The notes: generated by a model from the sequence alone, not told the origin. A stretch of 32,000 bases of DNA from Candidatus Kuenenia stuttgartensis (GCF_900232105.1 NZ_LT934425.1:3060001-3092000); one strand, 5' to 3'. Numbered from the stretch's first letter, positions 11,000 through 30,463 are shown. A program made the numbers and translations.

Positions 11000-11069
11000 T
11001 TCAGCAGCCGGCAAATTGCAGATTGAGGACTGCCGACTGAGGATTGAAGATTGAGGACTGCGGATTGTA
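11000..11069. repeat. heptanucleotide tandem repeat downstream of ligA
   Basis: In 7-nt register: GCCGGCA AATTGCA GATTGAG GACTGCC GACTGAG GATTGAA GATTGAG GACTGCG GATTGTA. It shares the 17-mer CGGCAAATTGCAGA.TG with the block at 30408-30463. Confidence 0.6.
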
Positions 11070-13558: not shown

Positions 13559-14665
13559 ATGGAAATAAAAGATTTATTACAAGAAATGGTGCGTTTGGAT
13601 GCTTCTGATATTTACATTACCGTTGGGCTGCCCCCTGTGTACAGGAAGGAAGGGAACAACATTCCCGCCGGTCAGGAAATGGTAACGGGCGATGACACCC
13701 GCACCCTTGCCGAATCAATAATGAGCGAAAAACAAAGGGCAGATTTTTACGAACAGATGGAAATGAATTTAGCCCTGTATTATCCGGAACTTGGACGTTT
13801 CAGGGTAAACATTTTTTTTCAGCAAAGGAATGTCGGCCTTGTTATCCGGCAGATAAAGATAAATATTCAGTCTATTGACGATTTACGGCTACCCCAGGTG
13901 TTCAAAGACATTGCCATGACAAAACGGGGGCTTGTGCTGGTAGTTGGCGCAACCGGTTCAGGGAAATCAACCACACTGGCGGCGATGATTGATCACAGGA
14001 ATGAGAATAATTCAGGCCACATAATTACGGTAGAAGACCCCATTGAGTTTGTGCACCGCCATAAAAAGTCTGTTATCACACAAAGAGAAATCGGACTGGA
14101 CAGCTTGTCGTTTCACAATGCACTAAAAAATACCTTGCGCCAGGCGCCGGACGTCATCCTGGTGGGAGAAATCCGCGATACCGAAACAATGGAGTCTGCC
14201 ATTACCTTTGCGGAAACGGGCCATCTTTGTTTGGGAACACTTCATGCAAACAACGCAAACCAGGCGATTGAAAGGATTATAAACTTCTTTCCTCCGGAAC
14301 GGCATGAACAAATATACATGCTCCTCTCGCTGAATCTACGGGCAATAATCTCGCAAAGATTAATTCCAGCAAAAGATGGAAAGCGGTCAGGCGCCTTTGA
14401 AGTATTGCTGGACACCCCAAGGATAAAGGATCTTATCTTAAAAAAGGAAATAGGGTTATTGAAGGAAACAATGGCAAAAGGGAATCAGGAAGGGATGATG
14501 ACCCTGGACCAGTCCTTATTTCATCTTTTAAAAAAGGGGGAAATAACTTACGAAAACGCAATTGCCTACGCCGATAGCGCGAATGATCTGCGTCTGCGGA
14601 TAAAGGTGGAAGGGATTGAAGGTGAGAAAGAAGAAGGGCAGGCTGCGCGTTTTAAATTAAAGTAA
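13559..14665 (+). CDS. pilU: PilT-family ATPase, PilU-like paralog
   Basis: The 368-aa ORF has GATGSGKST, EDPIEF, VILVGEIRD and GTLHAN. Confidence 0.8.
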   Translation: MEIKDLLQEMVRLDASDIYITVGLPPVYRKEGNNIPAGQEMVTGDDTRTLAESIMSEKQRADFYEQMEMNLALYYPELGRFRVNIFFQQRNVGLVIRQIKINIQSIDDLRLPQVFKDIAMTKRGLVLVVGATGSGKSTTLAAMIDHRNENNSGHIITVEDPIEFVHRHKKSVITQREIGLDSLSFHNALKNTLRQAPDVILVGEIRDTETMESAITFAETGHLCLGTLHANNANQAIERIINFFPPERHEQIYMLLSLNLRAIISQRLIPAKDGKRSGAFEVLLDTPRIKDLILKKEIGLLKETMAKGNQEGMMTLDQSLFHLLKKGEITYENAIAYADSANDLRLRIKVEGIEGEKEEGQAARFKLK

Positions 14666-14672
14666 AAAAAAT

Positions 14673-14768
14673 TTTCAACTTAATCGAGGTATATGCATGA
14701 AAAATGAAAAACCAAATTATTGCAATCCAGGGCTTCTTTTGTTGAGTTGAATTTTCTTTCATCTAAGC
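14673..14768 (-). other. possible terminal attC-like site of the cassette array
   Basis: On the minus strand, GCTTAGA overlaps the hicB stop. An AT-rich imperfect inverted repeat follows (TGAAAGAAAA / TTTTTCATTTTTCA), ending in GTTGAAA. The call is weak because the region is AT-rich. Confidence 0.25.
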
Positions 14769-15008
14769 AACTGCTAATTTCTCTTCATTTTGAATAATTA
14801 TCCTGGGATTTTTGCTTTTTGGTGGGATGGGCAATCCCTTTTCTTTTAGTAAACTAATATGTTCCTTCATTCCCCATTTTGCTTTATAAATGCAATCCTC
14901 TATAGAGTGGCCAATGCCACTAAAACCTTCTAAATCTTCTGAATAAAATCCAAAATAGTCAGGTTCTTCAGTTGCCTCTATTATTAATGAATATTCTAAA
15001 TCAATCAT
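14763..15008 (-). CDS. hicB: HicB-family antitoxin
   Basis: The 81-aa ORF has a UPF0150/HicB-like N-terminal fold pattern (YSLIIEATEE..FGFYSEDLEGFSGIGHSIEDC...A...H) and lies directly downstream of hicA. Confidence 0.7.
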   Translation of the reverse strand: MIDLEYSLIIEATEEPDYFGFYSEDLEGFSGIGHSIEDCIYKAKWGMKEHISLLKEKGLPIPPKSKNPRIIIQNEEKLAVA

Positions 15009-15021
15009 TATTTGCCTCCTA

Positions 15022-15213
15022 TTATTTCTTTTTTATTCCTGCTGATTTTAGTACAGCATGACAGGTACCTTTTGGAACTTCTTTTGAACCATGATAGTCT
15101 ACACGAATTAATTTGTTCCATCCAGCTTTTCCATAATATCTTATAGACCTTTTTTCTTTTATAATTTTGAATCCTTCTTTTTCAGGAAGTTTAACAAGTT
15201 CGCTAAATTTCAC
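15022..15213 (-). CDS. hicA: HicA-family mRNA interferase toxin
   Basis: The 63-aa ORF (LVKLPEKEGFKIIKEKRSIRYY...HGSKEVPKGTCHAVLKSAGI) matches the HicA/YcfA pattern. Confidence 0.75.
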   Translation of the reverse strand: MKFSELVKLPEKEGFKIIKEKRSIRYYGKAGWNKLIRVDYHGSKEVPKGTCHAVLKSAGIKKK

Positions 15214-15236
15214 TGTTTATCCTGTATATTAATTTT

Positions 15237-15296
15237 TCATAACGTACTCTTCAGCAGTCGCGGCTTTTTGCGGTCTGCTGGAAGAGATGGTTAAGC
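15237..15296 (-). other. attC-like cassette recombination site (60 bp)
   Basis: The minus strand reads GCTTAAC (R'' type, containing the exonuclease gene stop), then CTCTTCCAGCAGACCGC, AAAAAGC, CGCGACTGCTGAAGAG (imperfect inverted repeat with unpaired bases), then GTTATGA (R' type). Confidence 0.6.
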
Positions 15297-16166
15297 GATG
15301 TCCTCTGCGTTGTTCACCAATTCTTTAAAGTCACTTTCTCTTAAAATTCTGATTTGTTGCCCTTTTGTAATTAGTCGCTCAGCTTTTTGGTGCTTTGAGC
15401 TTTTTTCCTTCCCAGCTAACTTTGTTACATCTTGATCACCAACAACTAAAATTGTAGTTTTTTTTGTGACTCCAGACTCCACATTGCATCCTATTTGGGC
15501 AGCAAGATCTGCCGCGTCTATACGGCGAATTGTCAGCGCCCCTGTAAAAACTAAATTTTCACCATAAAGCACTCCTTCAGGATTACCTTCACGACGAATT
15601 GCACCGCCAGTGCTAATATTAGAAGGATCAATTGGTTGTTTTACTCGCTTAAGCCAATCTTCAATTCCCAAACCTGTTTTGGCTATCGCAGCAATTAAAA
15701 TATGTCCAGAAGCTTTTGCATCCTCCAGCGCATTATGATGTTTAAATTCATAGCCAATTAATTCACAGACATTTTTTAATCCATATCCGCTCCATGAAAT
15801 TTCATTCCAGGTTCGACGAGCAACCCTTGCAGTATCCAACCATTTTGGTTTAGGTATTCTAATGTCGTATTTATCAAAAGCTTTACTAACGGAAACTCTG
15901 TCAAAGTGAGTATGGCATACAGTTAATACGCCATCGAGATATCCGTATATTTTTTGTGCAACCTCATGAATCTTAGGGGACCCCTCAACATCTGTTTCTG
16001 CTATTCCGTGAATATAAATGTTTATTGGATCAAAATAATCTTCTGGATCAATTAAAGAGCACCATTCGTCAATGAGTTTATTATCTTCGAATTTAGCAAT
16101 GCCGATTTGACAGATGGAGGAAATATCTGCATTTGCTGTTTCAACATCAAGTGCTACAAATTTCAA
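15291..16166 (-). CDS. DEDDh 3'-5' exonuclease (DnaQ-like) fused to a C-terminal BRCT domain
   Basis: The 291-aa ORF has Exo I ALDVETA, Exo II region IHGI..D, and Exo III HNALEDA (H-x4-D). The C-terminal segment LVFTGAL...TKKTTILVVGD resembles the LigA BRCT. Confidence 0.75.
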   Translation of the reverse strand: MKFVALDVETANADISSICQIGIAKFEDNKLIDEWCSLIDPEDYFDPINIYIHGIAETDVEGSPKIHEVAQKIYGYLDGVLTVCHTHFDRVSVSKAFDKYDIRIPKPKWLDTARVARRTWNEISWSGYGLKNVCELIGYEFKHHNALEDAKASGHILIAAIAKTGLGIEDWLKRVKQPIDPSNISTGGAIRREGNPEGVLYGENLVFTGALTIRRIDAADLAAQIGCNVESGVTKKTTILVVGDQDVTKLAGKEKSSKHQKAERLITKGQQIRILRESDFKELVNNAEDIA

Positions 16167-16184
16167 CTGGCTGTTCCTCCGGAA

Positions 16185-16556
16185 TCACGGGTTAGCATAT
16201 TTCGTCGCATCGCTTGTATAGATAACTTTCATACCAGTTTTTGAGCAAACAATTTCTCTTTCTTCAGTTAGATCGATGTCTAAATCTTCACCCCTTAGAC
16301 CTTGCCACTCTGCCAAGTAATTAAGGCTACCATACTTTTCTTTTTTTTGTGTTTTTTTCTCTACGCCACCTTTCCAGCCGAGTACTGGCAACTCTCCATT
16401 TTTTGCTTGCTCTGCCAACTCAGGGGATTCGATGCTTCTTCTTCGCCCAACTTCCCAGCATGTGATTAGACCATTGTCTGGTCCCCTCCATCGCTCATCA
16501 AACGAAGGGTTTTCCCTTATAGGCTCATGACAGGAGCGGTAAATACGTTTGCTCAT
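16185..16556 (-). CDS. hypothetical protein co-cassetted with the exonuclease-BRCT gene
   Basis: The 123-aa ORF has no motif I recognise. An 18-nt gap containing GGAGG precedes the exonuclease start, and there is no attC-like site between the two genes. Confidence 0.5.
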   Translation of the reverse strand: MSKRIYRSCHEPIRENPSFDERWRGPDNGLITCWEVGRRRSIESPELAEQAKNGELPVLGWKGGVEKKTQKKEKYGSLNYLAEWQGLRGEDLDIDLTEEREIVCSKTGMKVIYTSDATKYANP

Positions 16557-16579
16557 TAATTTCTCCTTTTGTTTTAGAA

Positions 16580-16631
16580 GCTTAATGTGCGCTTGAGCGG
16601 TACGCCGTCGGGCGCGTTCGTCTCAAAGCGC
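16580..16631 (-). other. attC-like inverted repeat, apparently disrupted at one end by a MITE
   Basis: The plus strand reads GCTTAAT GTGCGCTTGAGCGGTACGCC GTCG GGCGCGTTCGTCTCAAAGCGC, an imperfect inverted repeat. On the minus strand the R'-like core reads ATTAAGC. The partner core is not identifiable beyond the MITE junction. Confidence 0.4.
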
Positions 16632-16763
16632 TATACTCAATCAGACTGGAATCACGGGTTTCTGACGTGCTCATCCATTACCTTCCATGCCCTTTTAATT
16701 GTGCTCAGATTGGGATTATATTCAATCAAACCGAAGCCAGTGGTTTCAGTCTGATTGAGTATA
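16632..16763. mobile_element. 132-bp MITE-like element with 17-bp perfect terminal inverted repeats
   Basis: TATACTCAATCAGACTG at 16632-16648 and CAGTCTGATTGAGTATA at 16747-16763. The terminal TA dinucleotides are compatible with a TA target duplication. It has no coding capacity. Confidence 0.6.
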
Positions 16764-16835
16764 GACGTGAAACATTCACTTTAGCCATTGTTCAATATCG
16801 AACTTGATTGCCTTACCAACATATTCGTTTGACGC

Positions 16836-17234
16836 CTAATCGGAGAATCGACCACTGAGTTTTATGACTGATGAGTAGCCGCGCTGTTTTAATTGCACAG
16901 CCAAGGGTTTTACATCAAACCACATAGTCAGATTCTTTCCGTGTGTCAGCTCACAAGGGAGGCGATGGGTAGAGTTATTGGAAGAATTTATAAACTGGGA
17001 GCCATCGGGGAGCAGCAGTCCCACAGATGATAGCGTGACGGGTTTCTCTCCAATATTTGCGGCTTCCATAAGAATGTGCGTGTCGCTAATTTGTGGCCCA
17101 GCCGTAAGAAAGCCATATGATGTTCTTACTTTTACCCGTGGTGCTTTATCTTGACGCTGAACGACTGCCACATATGTTGACAGAAGTGCTGCATATGCAG
17201 CTACAAGCAGAGTAAGTATGTCTTTCAGTTCCAT
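16836..17234 (-). CDS. small single-pass membrane protein of unknown function (cassette gene)
   Basis: The likely start is the ATG at 17234 (MELKDILTLLVAAYAALLSTYVAVV), with GGAG 7 nt upstream. The longer 150-aa track ORF would begin inside the upstream repeat. There is an N-terminal TM helix, then a beta-rich domain of about 100 aa. Confidence 0.55.
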   Translation of the reverse strand: MELKDILTLLVAAYAALLSTYVAVVQRQDKAPRVKVRTSYGFLTAGPQISDTHILMEAANIGEKPVTLSSVGLLLPDGSQFINSSNNSTHRLPCELTHGKNLTMWFDVKPLAVQLKQRGYSSVIKLSGRFSD

Positions 17235-17251
17235 CAATACTCCGTGTTTAC

Positions 17252-17526
17252 GTCTAACAATGATTATACAGTCTGTATAAAACGTCAAACGCAGACTGTT
17301 TCGATATGTATAAGAAGTTGCCGTGCCTTCTCGTCACATATTGTAACTACTTTCGCATTAAAATAAAAGAGTTGCGTATCATCATAAAAACTTTTCATTA
17401 TTGAAATGATAAAGAACAGTTCGTAATTTTAGACACCGTAACCTCCTTTGCCCAAAACATGGGTGTAGATCGTCGTTTTTACACCGTGATGGCTAAGGAG
17501 TTCCCAGATGGTTTGAATATTTGATT
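17252..17526 (-). repeat. type-A cassette-boundary repeat (copy R1) with an integrase C-terminus relic and a GTTAGAC core
   Basis: It is near-identical to 23915-24190. Minus strand 17524-17429 translates to SNIQTIWELLSHHGVKTTIYTHVLGKGGYGV*. The 3' part has hairpins (ACAGTCTG...TACAGACTGT) and ends ...TATACAGACTGTATAATCATT GTTAGAC. Confidence 0.75.
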
Positions 17527-17742
17527 TTAAGCAAATATCAATCTTTCCCCCTTAGGCTCAGGTATGGGATCACCAAACTCCTTAGCGGTATCAATCCATA
17601 ATTGAATTGCCTCTTTAGCATTTTTTAATGCTTTTTCATGAGTCTCTCCATGAGCTATACAGCCAGGAAGTTCAGGCACTTCTGCTATAAATGCATTGTC
17701 TTCATTACTCCAGTAAATAATAATTTCGTATCTATACATCAA
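17527..17742 (-). CDS. hicB: HicB-family antitoxin
   Basis: The 71-aa ORF (YEIIIYWSNEDNAFIAEVPELPGCIAHGETHEKALKNAKEAIQLWI) is a classic short HicB/UPF0150. It overlaps hicA by 4 nt. Confidence 0.8.
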   Translation of the reverse strand: MMYRYEIIIYWSNEDNAFIAEVPELPGCIAHGETHEKALKNAKEAIQLWIDTAKEFGDPIPEPKGERLIFA

Positions 17743-17972
17743 ATAGTCCCTCCGCGTTTATATTTTACTATAATGTTTCTTACTTGTTTAACCTGATAAG
17801 GCTTTGCCTTATTGCCCTCACGCTGAAGATTAATTTTTTCTATAACAGCTTTCTTTCTGAACATGTGATGGCTGCTTTTAATCCTCATGTCAAAACCGAA
17901 ATGTTTCAACAGGCTGCATAAATCTTCAAATTTAATATTTGCATCCGATGTTCCACAAAGAATCTTAAGCAA
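17739..17972 (-). CDS. hicA: HicA-family toxin
   Basis: The 77-aa ORF has a TTG start. The segment FEDLCSLLKHFGFDMRIKSSHHMFRK fits the HicA pattern (GSHH-type motif). Confidence 0.7.
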   Translation of the reverse strand: MLKILCGTSDANIKFEDLCSLLKHFGFDMRIKSSHHMFRKKAVIEKINLQREGNKAKPYQVKQVRNIIVKYKRGGTI

Positions 17973-18041
17973 GAGCTTCTCATGTTTACCTATTGGTTTA
18001 TTTTATCATTGTTGTTGTGGTTATTTTATTATTTTTTATGC

Positions 18042-18737
18042 ACCGGATAGGTCACGGGCATTGCTGCCCGATTCCCTCCTAAGAACTGTACGTGATAGTT
18101 TCCCATCATACAGCTCAAGCACCTGTTTAAGCTTCTCTTATGGAGAAACCCGCTAATAAATTTCTTCACGTTAATAACTGACTGTCAGTATATCAAAAAA
18201 AAACGAAGGGGGCACCAGGCTTAGCACCCGTCATTTGCATTCCCTTCTTTCAACTGATTCATTCAATGTTCACGTAATAAGGCACCTGCCAACTATCAGC
18301 CTCATTACTGAGCCGGTAATATTTCAACCGGTATCTCTTCCATTACAGAAAAGCATTCGCTTCCTTATGGCATCTCACCCCAGTCCTCCAACAGCATGCC
18401 TCACGGTTAGCCTGCCCATAGGGCGAAGGTCTGAGTTTCCACGTTCCGTATAATTGACCCTGTAAATGACTTAGATGCGTCCTGGACACCGGTGGTTCTA
18501 CAGTTCCGTGCAAGCACGTTAGAGACTTGCAACTTTACCAACATGCTATTCACACTGGGGGAATAACCTTCGACCTGTTAAACCTCGTAGGTCTGTCGCT
18601 CATTGACGATGCGTGCGGACATTCATATATTTTCATCATATCATTCGTTCCTAGCCCTTAACCGGATAGGTTTTCCGGAGGGGTCTGCCTGTCGCCATTT
18701 CGACCCAATTCGGTACGTTGTCCGTGAGGCTTCGCAC
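18042..18737 (-). ncRNA. ORF-less group II intron ribozyme (about 696 nt)
   Basis: The minus strand starts GTGCG at 18737. Domain V at 18116-18083 reads GAGCUGUAUGAUGGGAAACUAUCACGUACAGUUC, with the AGC triad, AC bulge, GAAA tetraloop and G-U wobbles at canonical places. Domain VI at 18079-18045 is a GGAGGG / CCU-A-UCC helix with a bulged A at 18048 and a GCAA-capped hairpin. The last intron nt (18042) is the 6th nt after the bulged A. Only about 150 nt separate the D3-like region from DV, so no RT ORF fits. Confidence 0.8.
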
Positions 18738-18850
18738 CCCGTCGTCAGCGCAATGGTAGCACGCTCACGTAGGAATAAGCAGGAACATGCTTAGTACACT
18801 CAAGAAGAAAATCTTCTTTTAGTACAATCAATTATGCGACATCGTGTCGC

Positions 18851-18980
18851 GACTAACGGCTAGCGTTACCTGCGCTGGGGCGGGCGTGGATTCGGCTTGA
18901 AAGCAGGATTCTGTTGAGGCGTAGAAAAAGGTCAATAAATCGCACAGAATCCCCAGCGTCAGGTGCACGCTTTGTTAGAC
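18851..18980 (-). other. attC-like cassette recombination site (130 bp) of the ApeA-like cassette
   Basis: The minus strand reads GTCTAAC AAAGCGTGCACCTGACGCTGGGG ... CCCCAGCGCAGGTAACGCTAGCC GTTAGTC. The R''/L'' and L'/R' arms are imperfectly complementary, with unpaired bases. Confidence 0.65.
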
Positions 18981-19013
18981 CCCGCCTTTGACCTGCAAGA
19001 CTCTTTGCCGAAT

Positions 19014-20408
19014 TCATTTCTTGATTGTCCGTAAATGCTTCCATCCAGTCAAGTGAGCCTGTATCTTAGGTTCTAAAAGTTCCTTGACTTTTTCATCGGA
19101 AAATCCAATGATTCCCAATAAGTACAACTCAAATATCATTGTCAATACATAAATAATGGAAGGCAACTCTTCTTTTTGGAAAGTCAATTTCCGTTCGTTG
19201 TGATGCACAAATTCATTTCTCGTGTTAGTAACTCTTTTAGCAAAAAGTTCCATATCATCAACAAATCGTCCAGAGGTCTCTTTTTTATTATCAAGAAGTT
19301 CAAAGATTTTTTGTCGAAATCTTTTGTAGTTCGCGTTACTCAATGCGCCTTCCACCCATTCAGTTAATTCAGCAGGAACAGCGCTCAGCACTCTCTCCTT
19401 TTGCTCAACAAATTTATCGTGCGATAAATATTGACCATCAAACAAAATACTGTGCAAAGACTCTAGCGACTGAGCGATATTTAGAAATTTTGTATCAATA
19501 AACAATCGGTTGCTATAGAATAACGAGCGATATAAATGAATTATCGTTTCGTATTTATCAAAGGATGTAAACCATGCAGAGATTTGGTCTCCTGATAAAT
19601 CCTTGAAGGTATATAAAAATTCCTGCGGCAATTTTTGTTTTCTGCTTACAATCGGCTCTATAGGCGTATAGAAGATATTTATTTCTGGATAATGTATCTT
19701 GCCTTCGCCGAGTTCTTGTGGGTTCTCCTTTGAAAAGCCAAACACAGACATAGGATAAGGTATCCTTTGGATTGCAAATTGAAGTAAATACGCGAATATA
19801 TTTAATTGTTTGAATAAATCATCAAATTGAATATCGCCATTTTTGCTTTTTACGACAAGATACGCGCTCTGAGAAATTGTCACTTCAGTTTGTATTATAG
19901 TGTGGTTTGGACCACGACTCGAAAAACCTATGCCAACCTCGAAAGTTTCTCCAACATCGAAAAATTGCGACATAGGTTTTTCATATCTTATTTTTGAGAC
20001 AAATTTGCTGTCAGCAGTATCCACTTCAATTGCAAATCCATAAATATCTACCCAAGCGTCTAAATCTGTGTAACTACCACATAATTGATTAAATCTAATT
20101 TTTTCTTCTGCCTCAAAATGCACCCCTTCAAAAACAAAGTGCACCAAGTATTTACCTCCGCCTAATCCAACCAGCGGATAAGCCCAAGAACTGATAATGC
20201 ACTTGTATAAAGTAATAGATTTTCCCTGTTGAGTAACCCCAAGAATAATAGGCAATTGTTGTATTGGTTCTAGTTTTTTTGAATCAAACACTCCTACCAG
20301 TTCAAGATCGGCACCATCTTCTTGAGAATAAGTTAGTGTTCCAGGCAATTTATTCTCTTCTGAGTCGGGGAGCCACCAGTATCCTTTCAATTCAAATGGA
20401 CTTTGCAT
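19014..20408 (-). CDS. ApeA-like protein: ApeA-type N-terminal domain plus C-terminal HEPN domain (candidate anti-phage/abortive-infection RNase)
   Basis: The 464-aa ORF has an N-terminus (FELKGYWWLPDSEENKLPGTLTYSQEDGADLELVG) matching the hallmark G.WWLP...G.L start of ApeA N-terminal domains. The C-terminal alpha-helical region carries an Rx4H motif (TRNEFVHH). Confidence 0.6.
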   Translation of the reverse strand: MQSPFELKGYWWLPDSEENKLPGTLTYSQEDGADLELVGVFDSKKLEPIQQLPIILGVTQQGKSITLYKCIISSWAYPLVGLGGGKYLVHFVFEGVHFEAEEKIRFNQLCGSYTDLDAWVDIYGFAIEVDTADSKFVSKIRYEKPMSQFFDVGETFEVGIGFSSRGPNHTIIQTEVTISQSAYLVVKSKNGDIQFDDLFKQLNIFAYLLQFAIQRIPYPMSVFGFSKENPQELGEGKIHYPEINIFYTPIEPIVSRKQKLPQEFLYTFKDLSGDQISAWFTSFDKYETIIHLYRSLFYSNRLFIDTKFLNIAQSLESLHSILFDGQYLSHDKFVEQKERVLSAVPAELTEWVEGALSNANYKRFRQKIFELLDNKKETSGRFVDDMELFAKRVTNTRNEFVHHNERKLTFQKEELPSIIYVLTMIFELYLLGIIGFSDEKVKELLEPKIQAHLTGWKHLRTIKK

Positions 20409-20494
20409 TATTTCTCCGCTTACTATGAATCAAACTTTATCTGCAATGATTTTACTTGTTGATCTAAAAAATGAGATTATTGTGCAAGAAGGGG

Positions 20495-20738
20495 GTCGAA
20501 CAATGATTATACAATCTGTATAAAACGGCAAATACAGACTGTTTCAGTATATATAAGAAGTTGCCGTATCTTCTTATAACGCATTGTAACTTATTTCTTA
20601 TAAAGCTTTTGTGTATTTTTTTGCTTTTGTTCATTCCGGTTTATACAGTCTGTATAAACCAACCTACAACCTATCGACTGGACTTCGGACACCGTGACCA
20701 CCTTTGTTCAAGACATGGGTGTAGATCATCGTCATACT
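20495..20738 (-). repeat. type-B cassette-boundary repeat (copy R2) with an integrase C-terminus relic and a GTTCGAC core
   Basis: It is near-identical to 24706-24949. Minus strand 20735-20664 translates to MTMIYTHVLNKGGHGVRSPVDRL*. It contains two copies of the palindrome TTATACAG(A/T)CTGTATAA and the hairpin TATAAGAAG-ATACGGCAA-CTTCTTATA, and ends ...ATAATCATT GTTCGAC. Confidence 0.75.
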
Positions 20739-20853
20739 CAGATATGATAGCAAGATAATAGAAAATTGTTTTTCCCATAAAATCGAGCACTAATAAAACA
20801 AAAATGAAGAAAATTTCAAGCTTTTTAATTTTTTCAGCAAAATAGACAAACAA

Positions 20854-20916
20854 AAAGAAGGGGATACTTCCCTTATTTTCTCACCAAATCAAGCAAGAAA
20901 TATGGGAGGTGTCCCC
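20854..20916. repeat. 63-bp hairpin repeat, copy 1
   Basis: AAAGAAGGGGATACTTCCCTTATTTTCTCACCAAATCAAGCAAGAAATATGGGAGGTGTCCCC. The arms GGGGATACTTCCC / GGGAGGTGTCCCC pair at 11 of 13 positions. The second copy is at 22739-22799. Confidence 0.6.
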
Positions 20917-20974
20917 GATTCACCAAAAACATTCAAATACCCGTATTTCAGCTTTAATAAGCATTACCAACGGT

Positions 20975-21120
20975 AGCTAACTGCGCTGGGATTTACTGGA
21001 GATGTACACGGTGCACGCGGTTGGAATCCTTCCCAGAAACACAATTGATAGAATAATTGATAAGGGATACCGCAGTAATCTGCCGGCATTTCCGTAACAA
21101 TGAGAGCCAGAGTGTTAAAC
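20975..21120 (-). other. attC-like cassette recombination site (146 bp) of the PanA/toxin cassette
   Basis: On the minus strand, GTTTAAC (a perfect RYYYAAC) lies 2 nt after the toxin stop, followed by ACTCTGG... The distal arm ...CCCAGCGCA ends in GTTAGCT. The arms are imperfectly complementary. Confidence 0.55.
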
Positions 21121-21122
21121 CC

Positions 21123-21557
21123 TCATGCGTTTAACATTTCTTTTATATTATTTTCCACAACTGGACTTGCAATAACAGCCTCACGAAGTTTTTCAACAAT
21201 TCCAATAGGCATTTCCGTCTTACATGCTAATTGTTTGCTTTTTAGAAGAGAAACTATTTCTTCAATGGTCTTTTTAATTACCGAGTTACAATCCACGACT
21301 GATTCTTTAGTAAAAATCGCATATTCGGCGTTGTCTATTTTTACCAAAGTATTAGGCATATGACGTCTACGCTTTATAGCTTTTTCGACTTGTGAGGTTG
21401 AATTAACCATGATTAGGAATTTGTCCTTTAGCGGGGCCTTATTCACAACTATAAAATAGTGTGGTTCCGGATTACAAAAGCTTTTTTCTGTAAAGTAGTA
21501 AACAGAACCGGGTTGTATTGTAGACTTGATTTGTATATCGGGCGGAATATCAATCAG
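21123..21557 (-). CDS. MazF/PemK-like toxin candidate, partner of the Panacea-domain antitoxin; start probably non-canonical
   Basis: The track ORF 21123-21446 starts at a GTG with no SD, but the frame is open up to 21578. The extension (..IQPGSVYYFTEKSFCNPEPHYFIVVNKAPLKDKFLIMVNSTSQ) supplies the MazF-like G.(I/V)....(F/L)...RP.(V/L)V(V/L)...(I/V).V.P.TS strands. GGGAG lies 7 nt upstream of the CTG at 21557. Confidence 0.5.
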   Translation of the reverse strand: MIDIPPDIQIKSTIQPGSVYYFTEKSFCNPEPHYFIVVNKAPLKDKFLIMVNSTSQVEKAIKRRRHMPNTLVKIDNAEYAIFTKESVVDCNSVIKKTIEEIVSLLKSKQLACKTEMPIGIVEKLREAVIASPVVENNIKEMLNA

Positions 21558-22191
21558 GAACTTGCTCCCATTGATTTTTCAGTTCCATTTGTTCTTTTAC
21601 ATAATTCAGCATTTCTTCTTTATCATCAGTATCCATAGCAAATAAGTCCTTACCTTCTAATGGGATTAACTGCTCGCTTCCGGACATGGCATCTTTAAAG
21701 AAATCTTCGTAATCCATGTTAAATACAGAACCAATACCTGACTCCAACCTCTTTTCAAACCTCTTCCATTCCGGATATGCGTGGGAAACTTCTGCAAGCT
21801 GAAATTTGTCAAGATGTCCGAAATATTTTATTGCAAACTCCAGCGCTTCAATATCAGAATCTGAGAAAACATTCATATCTACATCATGTATAGACTGAAT
21901 ATCATAAATACCTTGTTTTTCGATATATTGTCTATTATATTCACTCTCAATGGTGTCCAGAAAAGAGGTATTTTCAGCAATATCTTTCGTTTTAGAACCT
22001 ACCGGACCGTATTCCATTGCAACATATTCATCGTTGGTTACCGGTCGACCATATTTGCGCAAGTGGTACCTATCGGCAAAATAAATAAGCTTTATGGCCT
22101 TCATCTTATTTACCTTTCCGCCGGATATTTTTGCAAGGTAGTTCAGGGCTTGAGTAGCTTTTTTGAAATCAAAATTGAAATGGATACACAT
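21550..22191 (-). CDS. Panacea (DUF4065, SocA/GepA-like) domain antitoxin
   Basis: The 213-aa ORF (KMKAIKLIYFADRYHLRKYGRPVTNDEYVAMEYGPV) is the characteristic DUF4065 N-terminal core. It lies immediately upstream of, and overlaps, a toxin-like ORF. Confidence 0.7.
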   Translation of the reverse strand: MCIHFNFDFKKATQALNYLAKISGGKVNKMKAIKLIYFADRYHLRKYGRPVTNDEYVAMEYGPVGSKTKDIAENTSFLDTIESEYNRQYIEKQGIYDIQSIHDVDMNVFSDSDIEALEFAIKYFGHLDKFQLAEVSHAYPEWKRFEKRLESGIGSVFNMDYEDFFKDAMSGSEQLIPLEGKDLFAMDTDDKEEMLNYVKEQMELKNQWEQVPD

Positions 22192-22281
22192 ATATCAAAT
22201 CATGTTCTCGTGTAAATGGTGATAGGATAGAATTATAATGAAAATTCAGGATTTGTTTTGATTTATTATAGGTCATTTTTG

Positions 22282-22693
22282 GTAACTATTCAGCGTAAAC
22301 GATACACGGCTCGTTCCCAAACTCCAGTTTGGGAATGCATTTGTTCGAGAAACTCCGGTTTCTCGCCTATTTATTGATAGATAGGGAATAAAATCACAGG
22401 GTTAAGACAGTTTGTAATTTGTCAAGTCAGACCCTCACTGGAAACAAAGTTTCCAGTGCAATTACGTTCCCAAACTGGACAGACTGGGTCAAATGAACTT
22501 TGTTTTCTCAAAAGTGGGGATAACACCTCACATCTTGCCTGTTTTATACCCTATTTATTACTATTTTTCCATTAAAGTGGGGAATGCATATCGAGAAATA
22601 GGGTAAAATTGCCCATTTGACCCAGTCTGTGGAGTTTGGGAACGAGTTGCGCTCTTATCTCCGGTAGTTTAATAAATTACGCTGAATAGTTAC
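22282..22693. mobile_element. 412-bp non-autonomous element (MITE) with IS66-type ends and an 8-bp target duplication
   Basis: The termini are GTAACTATTCAGCGTAA (22282-22298) and TTACGCTGAATAGTTAC (22677-22693). A perfect direct repeat CATTTTTG flanks it at 22274-22281 and 22694-22701. The terminus matches the end of the IS66-family element at 31273 (GTATCTATTCAGCGTA). There is no ORF, and the interior is packed with perfect hairpins. Confidence 0.7.
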
Positions 22694-22738
22694 CATTTTT
22701 GAGATTTATCAATAATCTTGTTTTGGATAAAGAGGGAT

Positions 22739-22799
22739 AAAGAGGGGACACTTCCCTTATTTTTTCACCAAATCAAGCAAGAAATATGGGAGGTGTTCC
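22739..22799. repeat. hairpin repeat, copy 2
   Basis: AAAGAGGGGACACTTCCCTTATTTTTTCACCAAATCAAGCAAGAAATATGGGAGGTGTTCC aligns along its length with 20854-20916. Confidence 0.6.
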
Positions 22800-22964
22800 T
22801 ATAATTTCATTTCAAGATTTAATGCCCCATGAGGGGATTTTCCCTTGTAGCCTAAAATCACTCCAACTTGACTTGTCAATTCTTCATTTAACAAAATTCC
22901 AGTCCATTGTGTTTTTGTTAAGTCAGTCGCCATTATTCTCTTTTTTATTTGTTTGTCTACCGTA

Positions 22965-23093
22965 CATAACACGAGGCTGAGTTGCGGCGGGCCTAAGGAA
23001 GCACTGCACCAGCTAATTTAAAATAAGATCTGAGAGGGCACCAAACCCAGCCAACAAGCCGGAACCCGCGGTCAACTCCAGCCGATGTTATGT
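22965..23093 (-). other. attC-like cassette recombination site (129 bp) of the DUF433/PIN cassette
   Basis: The minus strand reads ACATAAC ATCGGCTGGAGTTGACCGCGGGTTCC ... GGCCCGCCGCAACTCAGCCTCG T GTTATGT, with long, imperfectly complementary arms. Confidence 0.6.
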
Positions 23094-23160
23094 GGTCGGA
23101 ACTGACCTCGCTTCTTGTGTCTCAATTTCAGAGTAAATATCTTACTATAATTACTATATC

Positions 23161-23493
23161 TTACAAAAATTCAAGATGATTTTTCATCTCATCTGATTCG
23201 AGTACTTGATAAATTAGCATGAGTCCTCTTACAATGTCGCCAATTGGAGTACGTTGGTGAGCATACACGATACCGCTGTGTTTAACACCTCTTGAATGTA
23301 GCTTCAGAAAATCCTCATCTTGCGTAAATATGACTCTTCTTTCTTTCATGGCAAAAGCTATATGTTCCTTATCATCTGCGCCCAACATCCCAGCTTCTTT
23401 TGTCGTCAAAGCATCCACGCCTCGAAGTCGCAATCCTTTCACAACAGAATTGGATACATGTTCGTCTGTATAAAACTTAAGCTTTTTACTCAT
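23161..23493 (-). CDS. DUF5615-type PIN-like (Mut7-C-like) toxin
   Basis: The 110-aa ORF (KFYTDEHVS..VVKGLRLRGVDALT...IFTQDEDF) fits the DUF5615 family that pairs with DUF433. It overlaps the upstream gene by 8 nt. Confidence 0.65.
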   Translation of the reverse strand: MSKKLKFYTDEHVSNSVVKGLRLRGVDALTTKEAGMLGADDKEHIAFAMKERRVIFTQDEDFLKLHSRGVKHSGIVYAHQRTPIGDIVRGLMLIYQVLESDEMKNHLEFL

Positions 23494-23788
23494 TTAATTT
23501 TTGCAATACTTTTGAAGGCGTTTTTTGACGTAATGCTTCCACAAAAGATTCACTCTCCTCAATCGATTTGTCAATTTCAGCGCGATGATCGTAGTAATAG
23601 GCCAAAGCAGCGTAAACATCGGCTAAAGTCAGATCATATTCAGCAGCAATTTCGTCTGCGCTACGTCCCAACAGTTCGTGCCAAAGAACAATATTTTGAA
23701 CGGTGATACGATGTCCAGCTATTCTCGGCTTACCACCGGTGATACCTTCGGTAATCTCGATGTGTCCATCTAAAGTTTTCGTAATCAT
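23486..23788 (-). CDS. DUF433-family antitoxin-like protein
   Basis: The 100-aa ORF (GITGGKPRIAGHRITVQNIVLWHELLGRSADEIAAEYDLTLADVYAALAYY) is the DUF433 signature. Confidence 0.7.
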   Translation of the reverse strand: MITKTLDGHIEITEGITGGKPRIAGHRITVQNIVLWHELLGRSADEIAAEYDLTLADVYAALAYYYDHRAEIDKSIEESESFVEALRQKTPSKVLQKLNE

Positions 23789-23914
23789 TTACTCCACCTC
23801 TCAATTAAAAATCCAAGAATCAGCACACAGAAAAATTTAACTACTTTAGTAAAGAATGGCAAGAAAATGTTCGGCTGACTACTATTTTATTTAGATGATC
23901 GCTGAATACCTGCC

Positions 23915-24190
23915 ACATAACAATGATTATACAGTCTGTATAAAACGGCAAAAACAGACTGTTTCGATATGTATAAGAAGTTGCCGTGCCTTCTTGTCAC
24001 ATATTGTAACTACTTTTCGCATTAAAATAAAAGAGTTGCGTATCATCATAAAAACTTTTCATTATTGAAATGATAAAGAACAGTTCGTAATTTTAGACAC
24101 CGTAACCTCCTTTGCTCAAAACATGGGTGTAGATCGTCGTTTTTACACCGTGATGGCTAAGGAGTTCCCATACGGTTTGAATATTTGATT
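23915..24190 (-). repeat. type-A cassette-boundary repeat (copy R3)
   Basis: It is a paralog of 17252-17526. Minus strand 24188-24093 translates to SNIQTVWELLSHHGVKTTIYTHVLSKGGYGV*. It ends ...ATAATCATT GTTATGT. Confidence 0.75.
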
Positions 24191-24406
24191 TTAAGCAAAT
24201 ATCAATCTTTCTCCCTTAGGCTCAGGTATGGGATCGCCAAACTCCTTAGCGGTATCAATCCATAATTGAATTGACTCTTTAGCATTTTTTAATGCTTTTT
24301 CAGGAGTTTCTCCATGAGCTATACAGCCAGGAAGTTCGGGCACTTCTGCTATAAACGCATTGTCTTCATTACTCCGGTAAATAATAATTTCGTATCTATA
24401 CATCAA
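24191..24406 (-). CDS. hicB: HicB-family antitoxin (second copy, intact)
   Basis: The 71-aa ORF differs from the 17527-17742 product at a few residues (W11R, H35P, A44S). Confidence 0.8.
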   Translation of the reverse strand: MMYRYEIIIYRSNEDNAFIAEVPELPGCIAHGETPEKALKNAKESIQLWIDTAKEFGDPIPEPKGERLIFA

Positions 24407-24637
24407 ATAGTCCCTCCGAGTTTATATTTTACTATAAAGTTTCTTACCTGTTTAACCTGATAAGGCTTTGCCTTATTACCCTCACGCTGAAGATTAATTT
24501 TTTCTATAACAGCTTTCTTTCTGAACATGTGATGGCTGCTTTTAACCCTCATGTCGAAAACCGAAATGTTTCAGCAGGCTGCATAAATCTTCAAATTGAA
24601 TATTTGCATCCGATGTTCCACAAAGAATCTTAAGCAA
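24403..24637 (-). pseudogene. hicA: hicA pseudogene (frameshifted copy)
   Basis: It aligns with 17739-17972 but has a 1-nt insertion (plus-strand GTCGAAAACCG versus GTCAAAACCG, about 24553-24563). No ORF of comparable length remains. Confidence 0.7.
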
Positions 24638-24705
24638 GAGCTTTTCGTGTTTACCCATTGATTCATTTTACCATTGATGTGGTGGTTATTTTATTATTTT
24701 TATAT

Positions 24706-24949
24706 GCCGAACAATGATTATACAGTCTGTATAAAACGGCAAATACAGACTGTTTCAGTATATATAAGAAGTTGCCGTATCTTCTTATAACGCATTGTAA
24801 CTTATTTCTTATAAAGCTTTTGTGTATTTTTTTGCTTTTGTTCATTCCGGTTTATACAGTCTGTATAAACCAACCTACAACCTATCGACTGGACTTTGGA
24901 CACCGTGACCACTTTTGTTCAAGACATGCGTGTAGATCATCGTCATACT
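24706..24949 (-). repeat. type-B cassette-boundary repeat (copy R4), outermost; possible attI-equivalent next to a decayed integrase
   Basis: It is a paralog of 20495-20738. Minus strand 24946-24875 translates to MTMIYTHVLNKSGHGVQSPVDRL*. It ends ...ATAATCATT GTTCGGC. Confidence 0.7.
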
Positions 24950-25716
24950 TAAGAAGATGTTGATAGCTTTTCCATATTGAATATTGAAGGTTTGGCCGTA
25001 TGTTGAACTATCGGAGTGAACGGACAATTCCCCGGACGTGACTTTAACCCCTAAGAGTAAGAAAATGTAACTGCATACTAACGCCTTGCTTATTTCCAGA
25101 CTATTCAAGTGATGAGGAAGGATGATTACGTATGGGTCCGCAGAATTGGACTACCCGCTTCTTCGAGGAGTTTGTTGATTTTAATGCGAGACGTTGCTTC
25201 TTTCTGCGCCATATTCAAAATTTATTTCAATAAAGCAGTTTTTCAAATACAAACTGACACATAACTATCTAATGAATTACCCCTTGATTTGAAAGGTATA
25301 TAAAGGAATGCATTTGCCATAAGCTCAAATAAATACTGCATTTGATGTGCAATATCAAGGAAATTTTTAGGGAATGGGGATGATGGTAGGGAAAACCTCT
25401 TTTATCGTGATGAAGTGTTTTCTGAAATGAATTTTTCCAGGAACCGCAAACGCTCTTTCTTGGGATGTGGTTTGTTCAGATATCGCCATCCGTGCAATTT
25501 TGCATTTTACCAGACTGCGGAGATTGGGGACGACCTGTATTCTTGGTGGATCGTTGCAAAAAAACCGCACCTTGATCCGCCCTTACACGTTTGAAACACC
25601 AGGTGAAACAATATAGTATTTGCAAGCATTGTATATTAACCCTGTCAGGGTTTTTTCATAAAATTAAAGTGTCACAAAAACTTTTGATTGAGTTTTACTT
25701 ACGCTTTTGTTTAAAC

Positions 25717-30407: not shown

Positions 30408-30463
30408 GTCAACAGTCAACGGTCGGCAATCGGCAAATTGCAGACTGTTGACTGTTGATTGAG
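30408..30463. repeat. heptanucleotide tandem repeat forming a hairpin between convergent genes
   Basis: In 7-nt register: GTCAACA GTCAACG GTCGGCA ATCGGCA AATTGCA GACTGTT GACTGTT GATTGAG. The arms CAACAGTCAAC / GTTGACTGTTG pair. It is a likely bidirectional terminator-like structure but has no T-run. Confidence 0.55.

Follow-up and report, generated by a model that had tools for sequence, protein, structure and literature searches.

The 32,000-nucleotide (nt) stretch of the genome of the anammox bacterium Candidatus Kuenenia stuttgartensis analysed here (GCF_900232105.1, NZ_LT934425.1:3060001-3092000; hereafter the window, with positions counted from its first letter) contains an array of small minus-strand genes in which four repeats carry remnants of an integron integrase gene (intI). 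Contig OCTL01000012.1 of assembly GCA_900232175.1 matches the window at 99.99% identity. The array is bracketed by pilT (13559–14665, plus strand) and argB (25790, plus strand) and encodes three hicA/hicB pairs, a DUF433/PIN-like pair, a SocA/Panacea antitoxin, an ApeA HEPN protein and an exonuclease. The four repeats, hereafter modules, are real, lie where the original prediction had placed them and fall as proposed into two types, all on the minus strand: A1 (17252–17526), A2 (23915–24190), B1 (20495–20738) and B2 (24706–24949). A1 and A2 are 97% identical and B1 and B2 98% identical. Aligning the modules on the minus strand confirmed the shared 5′ and 3′ segments that had been claimed, which measure about 65 nt and about 110 nt, respectively; a 99-nt block (family D2) present in every module is 83–96% identical to its reference copy. 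Similarity among the copies stops exactly after a GTT, with junctions (marked here by a slash) of GTT/AGAC in A1, GTT/ATGT in A2, GTT/CGAC in B1 and GTT/CGGC in B2. These ends had been described as GTTRRRY cores; conservation does end at GTT in all four copies, but only GTTAGAC fits the strict motif, and GTTATGT, GTTCGAC and GTTCGGC do not.

Read along the minus strand, B2 is the head of the array on its argB side and is followed by a hicA/hicB pair with A2, and by the DUF433/PIN-like cassette with its attC site. Next come a 57-amino-acid (aa) open reading frame (ORF), a hairpin repeat and an element resembling a miniature inverted-repeat transposable element (MITE), and then the SocA cassette and a 107-aa ORF. 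A short probable attC (recognized by eye), a hairpin repeat and a flank from upstream of intI lead to B1, after which the ApeA cassette with its attC, a group II intron, a hicA/hicB pair with A1, a 132-aa cassette and other genes extend to pilT. The array holds two B–hicAB–A arrangements. The hicA/hicB toxin–antitoxin pairs at 17527–18041 and 24191–24705 are directly fused to A1 and A2, respectively, without an attC, the second beginning directly after the GTT of B2; A1 and A2 form the 3′ ends of a duplicated unit of around 790 bp (17255–18041 and 23918–24707, 95.8% identical), which in the A1 copy has GTT at either boundary (the GTT of A1 itself is 17258–17256). Canonical attC sites belong to the ApeA cassette (attC 18851–18980, supported by folding; cassette 19014–20408) and to the DUF433/PIN-like cassette, which begins at the GTT of A2 (attC 22964–23093). 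A probable attC of the 132-aa cassette that follows A1 (16725–16833) was found only by a crude purpose-written finder, which called it in the plus orientation; its R″ is GTCAAAC, where GTCTAAC would be expected from GTTAGAC. The repeats had been said to occupy attC positions, which applies to type A but not to B1, preceded by the short probable attC and the intI upstream flank, or to B2, at the array head.

The relic peptides translate from the minus strand as claimed, and checking them against profile hidden Markov models (HMMs) upheld their identity as an IntI C terminus. The TIGR02249 'integron integrase' model was the best NCBIfam family for every relic, matched at positions 292–315 or 278–308 of 315 (the last 24–31 positions) with E-values of 3.8e-7 and 4.7e-6 for type B and 6e-6 for type A. 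Profiles for XerC and XerD were far weaker or absent, and with Pfam PF00589 alone single relics were not significant. When the window was searched by tblastn with the full integrase of the intact relative L011 described below, matches fell at the four modules only, covering residues 320–344 in type B (E 6.6e-9 and 5.7e-8) and 307–337 in type A (E around 4e-6, to 4.6e-6). In A1 the relic (17432–17521) is followed by an unrelated middle part and then the conserved 3′ segment, a layout that recurs in A2 (relic 24096–24185); B1 (relic 20667–20741) and B2 (24878–24952) retain the last 23–25 IntI codons, giving a range of 23–31 codons across the window. The same search revealed no further IntI-like segment in the 32 kb, and a Pfam scan found a recombinase domain in none of the 29 longer window ORFs, so that no complete integron is present in the window.

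At L011, an intact 344-aa IntI is encoded on the same strand as the module sequence, with its stop codon 144 nt before the 24-mer TATACAGAYTGTATAATCATTGTT that forms the last 24 nt of the module. This integrase is about 51% identical to IntI1 across 96% of its length and, by eye, contains the IntI-specific ALDRKY...WRWQW segment. It has more than 8,000 homologues at E < 1e-30, the top matches being 74–89% identical, and homologues in Brocadiaceae, Aminicenantes and Syntrophus are labelled integron integrase by their sources. B1 is 84% identical to the final 235 nt of the L011 platform. Because the modules are homologous to this intact intI–attI platform with an IntI-type integrase, each can be read as an intI 3′ end plus an attI region, with intI pointing toward the cassettes. 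The structural interpretation offered in the original prediction was therefore correct, and the first explanation it listed, a copied intI-3′/attI junction of an inverted-orientation integron, is likewise supported by the discovery of full-length IntI genes with the same downstream region in relatives. The attI region comprises an upstream GTT(A/G)-type box (GTTACAAT in the window), a hairpin AAGAAG-N9-CTTCTT, up to three copies of a palindrome (ACAGNCTGT) and the invariant end TATAATCATTGTT; in B1 a post-stop palindrome, GGTTTATACAGACTGTATAAACC, lies at about 20636–20658, and a core HMM matched A1 at 17336–17254 with a score of 75.0. We consider it likely that the repeats are tails of decayed integron platforms of the inverted type, each consisting of the last 23–31 intI codons and an attI of around 170 bp ending at G/TT.

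A scan of one genome per species for the exact 24-mer TATACAGAYTGTATAATCATTGTT retrieved at least 120 genome stretches. Their hosts include Planctomycetota (Brocadiales, Pirellulales and Phycisphaerae), deltaproteobacteria of the Desulfobacterota type, Aminicenantes, Sumerlaeota, Ignavibacteria, Bacillota, Terriglobia and others. Sequences diverge directly after the GTT in every one of these stretches, and intI is deleted or truncated at nearly all of them. Many genomes carry several platform copies on separate contigs, at most one of them intact. Among the 120 fetched 8-kb loci, 8, drawn from several phyla, contained two complete cores in the same orientation, mostly immediately upstream of ORFs, indicating that the process placing a platform inside an array recurs. 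On plasmids, the module had no match in PLSDB, and the best IntI matches, IntI1 and one cyanobacterial integron integrase, were about 50–54% identical. One attI core with an intI relic (L039, 374–455) is on a contig binned as Candidatus Woesearchaeota and is, by eye, close to the Aminicenantes loci L016, L052 and L116, which reflects either a binning error or transfer across domains.

The junction itself shows the complementarity of a cassette boundary. At 52 of 112 loci, the 7-mer that complements GTT and the next 4 nt reappears downstream, where it mostly opens a canonical attC, compared with 10.1 ± 3.1 loci (maximum 19) in a permuted control. A cassette starting at the module GTT and carrying the complementary R″ was seen directly in two places: the first L011 cassette starts GTT/ATAAC and its attC has the R″ TTATAAC, and the attC at 22964–23093 of the window opens with ACATAAC, the complement of the A2 junction GTT/ATGT. 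The module GTT is thus a cassette boundary and behaves as a putative crossover point.

We also examined a metagenome sample of 72 full or near-full intI genes with sufficient downstream sequence. Downstream of many of them lay a terminal site with the pattern palindrome-ATAA(T/A)CATTGTT, which, where detected, ended 157–180 nt past the tblastn IntI match. Integrases with an NKGGH tail had a ACAGNCTGT-type terminal site at 20 of 27 loci, including the exact 24-mer in 10, ending 157–169 nt past the match (167–169 nt for exact 24-mers). Those with an NRGGK tail had GAAAC[CT]ATATAA at 13 of 19 loci and ACAGNCTGT at 0 of 19, and NRGP-tail integrases had other palindromes. At L141 (Aminicenantes) and L142 (Kuenenia), a palindrome near the stop codon resembles the terminal palindrome of the same integron. 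Because palindrome type co-varies with IntI tail subtype, the palindrome belongs to the cognate attI, and its distribution is that expected for integrase recognition sites. A LexA box was rejected as the identity of the palindrome: half-site order and spacing do not match known LexA motifs, and palindrome type varies with IntI subtype and not with host.

The position of the type-A modules after hicB, together with a weak 6-bp pairing (ACAATG/CATTGT) between the ends of the type-B 3′ segment, could be taken to mean that the module is a new class of folded, attC-like site that incidentally includes integrase coding sequence, much as the original prediction had allowed for an unrecognized class of recombination site. 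Folding did not bear this out. As single-stranded DNA, the 3′ 111 nt of the modules form local hairpins only (−11 to −12 kcal/mol, z −1.3 to −2.5), whereas the real attC sites of the array fold end-to-end at −21 and −27.5 kcal/mol (z −2.4 and −4.0), the latter values belonging to the ApeA attC. The modules also lack pairing R″ and R′ boxes; their 5′ box is constant and the bases that follow GTT are variable. The crude attC finder did not call them. What is conserved in the modules is the sequence itself, as would suit a double-stranded protein-binding site: no compensatory changes occurred among 75 distinct cores, in which RNAalifold found the invariant palindrome only. Given in addition that the same region is the attI of intact integrons, we rejected attC-like folding and regard a new attC-like class as highly improbable. 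A structured RNA or riboswitch-like element was likewise rejected, with no Rfam match at the modules and no covariation.

Multiple copies within genomes, and insertion sequence (IS) elements at both ends of the window, are what one might see if the repeats were the ends of an IS, MITE or prophage with its own tyrosine recombinase and no connection to cassettes, the scenario named in advance as one that would overturn the integron interpretation. We excluded it. The relic is specifically of IntI type, analysis of 112 loci links the 3′ junction to cassettes carrying an attC, and at the modules we found no terminal inverted repeats, target duplications, transposase genes or phage genes; such an origin is scarcely credible.

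The invariant 24-mer includes a perfect TATAAT 7 nt before the cassette boundary, first ORFs usually start 10–60 nt after GTT, and the core remains exact where intI has gone. Irrespective of any part it plays in recombination, the conserved 3′ segment might accordingly be kept mainly as an expression signal, acting as a structured RNA or as a promoter whose operator is palindromic. There is no good −35 element at 16–18 nt, a promoter scan called A1 only (9/12), and neither an Rfam family nor RNA covariation was detected; moreover, because the palindrome tracks IntI subtype and not host phylum, conservation points to the integrase. Expression as the main reason for conservation is a possibility to which we give less than even weight, and it is compatible with, not opposed to, an origin of the modules as integron platform tails.

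The varied extents of the modules record the decay of intI. In a blastn comparison of 125 module copies (121 fetched loci and four in the window) with the L011 platform, homology always stopped at GTT, and the 5′ limit varied as nested truncations and internal intI deletions. One copy is intact, around 12 have internal intI deletions, many keep 20–40 terminal codons and many keep only the last ~80, ~40 or ~30 nt. Breakpoints within intI are scattered and not site-specific. In type B, also found in Kuenenia Bin_40, the whole ORF has been lost and the intI upstream flank kept, the two sides being joined (by eye) at a short shared ACGAT/GATCT; another set of Brocadiales loci shares a different deletion junction. 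In the window this flank is the remnant at 20742–20830 (minus strand; TTCATTTTTGT...TTTCTAT box), a region that precedes intI in intact relatives, so B1 reaches further 5′ than had been claimed. Its junction with the B1 relic reads ..GAGTATGACGAT/GATCTACACC, beside a short sequence that, by eye, is common to the intI 5′ leader and 3′ end. In type A the truncated relic is fused to hicB. With scattered breakpoints, a microhomology deletion in type B and a different junction in the other group, the truncations look like ordinary deletions, contrary to the earlier suggestion of cassettes generated by illegitimate excision from within intI; the scattered breakpoints and the type-B microhomology also led us to reject the idea that the relics arose through a secondary recombination site within intI, at the GTT of its D-V-S codons.

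The last ~125 nt of the A modules resemble a variant from other Planctomycetota loci (..AATGCGAAAGTAGTTAC..), and the B modules resemble the L011 type. A and B are therefore different attI lineages, differently truncated and each doubled. The view of repeated duplication was incomplete in this respect, the four copies representing two doubled lineages and not four independent events. In other genomes, the crude finder saw few attC sites just upstream of modules, being too insensitive for a conclusion.

Strain comparison revealed cassette turnover at the modules. In Ca. Kuenenia sp. Bin_40 (L009), flanks are 98–99% identical to the window, and identity continues through the GTT of B1, after which a different cassette follows (GTT/ATGT... 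versus GTT/CGAC...ApeA in the window). The hicAB unit of L009 sits after another attC, other cassettes follow its GTT, and its module combines an A-type relic with a B-type 3′ part, a hybrid that is probably the older form. Because different cassettes follow the same modules in L009, the cassettes present at both modules have changed since the split between the strains, a turnover that fits active attI sites. The whole array (~14700–25301) is strain-specific relative to L121 and L123–L128; other Kuenenia assemblies have nfeD/floA genes, a restriction–modification pair and an IS66 fragment between pilT and argB, with homology resuming at 25302. The assembly that holds the near-identical contig also contains an intact 369-aa integron integrase, P0006 (L142, OCTL01000144.1, 2501–3610), which has a longer C-terminal tail of a different subtype and a terminal att variant ending ..AGTCTAATTATTGTT/GGCC.

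The intron of the array, a group II intron of about 817 nt without an ORF (Rfam RF02012 and RF00029; window 18042–18858, minus strand), lies inside the R′ core of the ApeA attC (GTTAG/intron/GCAT...). A 99% identical copy in Kuenenia Bin_40 (L009, 3110–3925) occupies a different attC (GTTAT/intron/ACTT...), and for this reason the intron, though it encodes no protein, looks recently mobile and attC-targeting.

The hicAB–relic–attI unit raises the question of whether it moves as a cassette with an attI in place of an attC, excised between its flanking G/TTs and reinserted at attC or attI sites, and, more generally, whether platforms of this family spread as cassettes do. A GTT flanks it on either side in each of three contexts (behind an attC in L009, behind the B2 attI and behind the ApeA attC with the intron in its R′ core), a different cassette lies downstream in each, and the three alleles differ by 4–6% compared with 1–2% in the flanks of the two strains. 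The loci with two same-orientation cores and the genomes with several platform copies on different contigs would also suit cassette-like spread. However, new cassettes inserted in the ordinary way at the upstream B attI and the downstream A attI account for the three contexts equally well; our searches recovered the unit from this Kuenenia lineage only, and we saw neither a circular form nor an empty site. An exact-protein look-up of HicB gave 0 matches for the 71-aa reading and the same Kuenenia lineage only for the 70-aa ATG-start reading. The left boundary of the platforms, which lacks a GTT junction, also speaks against movement of this kind. We regard a mobile hicAB cassette as unlikely, and equally doubt that family platforms multiply as cassette-like units, whether intI–attI or a gene fused to an attI remnant such as hicAB, moved through attI instead of attC. 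If they did, arrays would have several active attI heads and genomes many platform copies, and the attI core, identical to the base across phyla, would be the signature of a class of environmental integrons that spreads horizontally.

Returning to the interpretation of the modules as tails of decayed platforms, several points weigh against it. No intact cognate IntI was found for this genome, P0006 being of another tail subtype and accompanied by a different terminal att. The cassette differences between strains could have arisen by homologous recombination between the repeated modules and the repeated intron and not through IntI. No platform left end with a GTT junction was seen, homology among Brocadiales loci fading at differing points, and the share of decayed platforms comes from a biased sample, the at least 120 stretches retrieved by exact 24-mer match. 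The proposed promoter role draws on the consensus −10 element as its single basis, the scan match being confined to A1.

A model that accommodates these results would have internal platforms arriving through integrase-mediated co-integration of platform-carrying circular DNA, or through duplication, with intI decaying afterwards; movement of attI-ended units would be a third plausible route into arrays. The modules may still serve as attI for an IntI supplied in trans, each heading a sub-array, a proposal for which the different cassettes after GTT in related strains are the only, indirect, sign of recombination. The invariant end with its perfect TATAAT might drive the downstream cassettes, and in type B the retained intI upstream flank, with the presumed intI promoter now around 300 nt upstream, might also do so.

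The element is made of known kinds of parts, unusually arranged: an integron platform, an attI and an intI pseudogene. The attI1 site of class 1 integrons consists of a simple site and the accessory IntI1-binding repeats DR1 and DR2. As in attI1, the putative site described here appears double-stranded, ends at a GTT crossover and has upstream GTT(A/G)-type boxes and repeated motifs; unlike attI1, it spans around 110–170 bp, lies downstream of intI, contains subtype-specific palindromes and has a 24–30-nt end that is invariant across phyla. Inverted-orientation chromosomal integrons of the Treponema denticola type form a group that includes the intI genes of Kuenenia stuttgartiensis, Chlorobium, Blastopirellula and Synechococcus (PMC3607928). 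The window resembles them in the transcription of intI toward attI and cassettes, in IntI clade and host group and in its canonical attC sites, and differs in that intI is cut to 23–31 codons and four attI remnants lie in one array; an integron is described as having a single attI, and attI sites as poorly conserved (PMC3607928). Pseudogenes of intI adjoining integrase-less cassette clusters (CALIN) have been described before, near 15 of 279 CALIN in a survey that did not search for attI and gave it as unknown for most integrons (Cury et al. 2016, PMC4889954). The present array shares with such degenerate integrons a cassette cluster without a functional neighbouring integrase and with recognizable intI remains, but here attI is intact, repeated and internal to the array. 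Like the toxin–antitoxin cassettes of sedentary chromosomal integrons (PMC13108822), the array includes three hicAB pairs, a DUF433/PIN-like pair and a SocA-type antitoxin, but two of the hicAB copies lack an attC and end in an intI relic and attI. Our literature search found no description of several attI remnants within one array, of a toxin–antitoxin pair ending in attI instead of attC, or of an identical attI core crossing phyla with a subtype-specific palindrome, and a full-text search for the palindrome sequence returned no paper.

These findings bear on the usual picture of an integron with a single integrase, attI and array, and they provide a concrete, searchable attI for a large environmental IntI clade. 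The last 24–30 nt are identical across many phyla and the adjacent palindrome varies with integrase subtype, which offers a hypothesis for IntI–attI recognition. That attI outlives intI and can recur within one array would change both the annotation of integrase-less clusters and the reading of cassette order and expression, and the hicAB–attI fusion is a candidate cassette whose movement would not require an attC. Integron biology is thereby extended into poorly studied anaerobes, not overturned.

Several further elements accompany the array and its relatives. A 57-nt hairpin-forming repeat (GGGGA(T/C)ACTTCCC...GGGAGGTGT(C/T)CC) occurs at 20859–20915 and 22743–22799 of the window in copies that are 95% identical. 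The copy upstream of B1 aligns, by eye, with a hairpin region preceding intI in other Brocadiales loci, and the second may mark a further platform remnant without an attI end. Another hairpin repeat, GGTTCAATCGTCCCCGATTGAACC, lies near platforms in several Brocadiales genomes (L011, 7520–7545, minus strand; L065, L094, L098, L099 and L115) and may be a repetitive extragenic palindromic (REP)-like element. In a Syntrophus-type integron (L138–L140, 3872–5822), genes for a second tyrosine recombinase and an IS91-family (Y2) transposase are found just downstream of an intact intI, where no terminal attI site was detected. The MITE-like element within the window array (22280–22695, 416 bp) has perfect 19-bp terminal inverted repeats, TGGTAACTATTCAGCGTAA, and nested internal inverted repeats. 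Between two cassettes at 16631–16764 is a 32-nt inverted repeat whose arms are 88% complementary and 70 nt apart; without AAC/GTT ends, it is no obvious attC. Finally, short repeats with a 14-nt period (..ATTGAGGACTGC..) occur in two far-apart intergenic places of the window, at 11001–11069 and 30423–30463.

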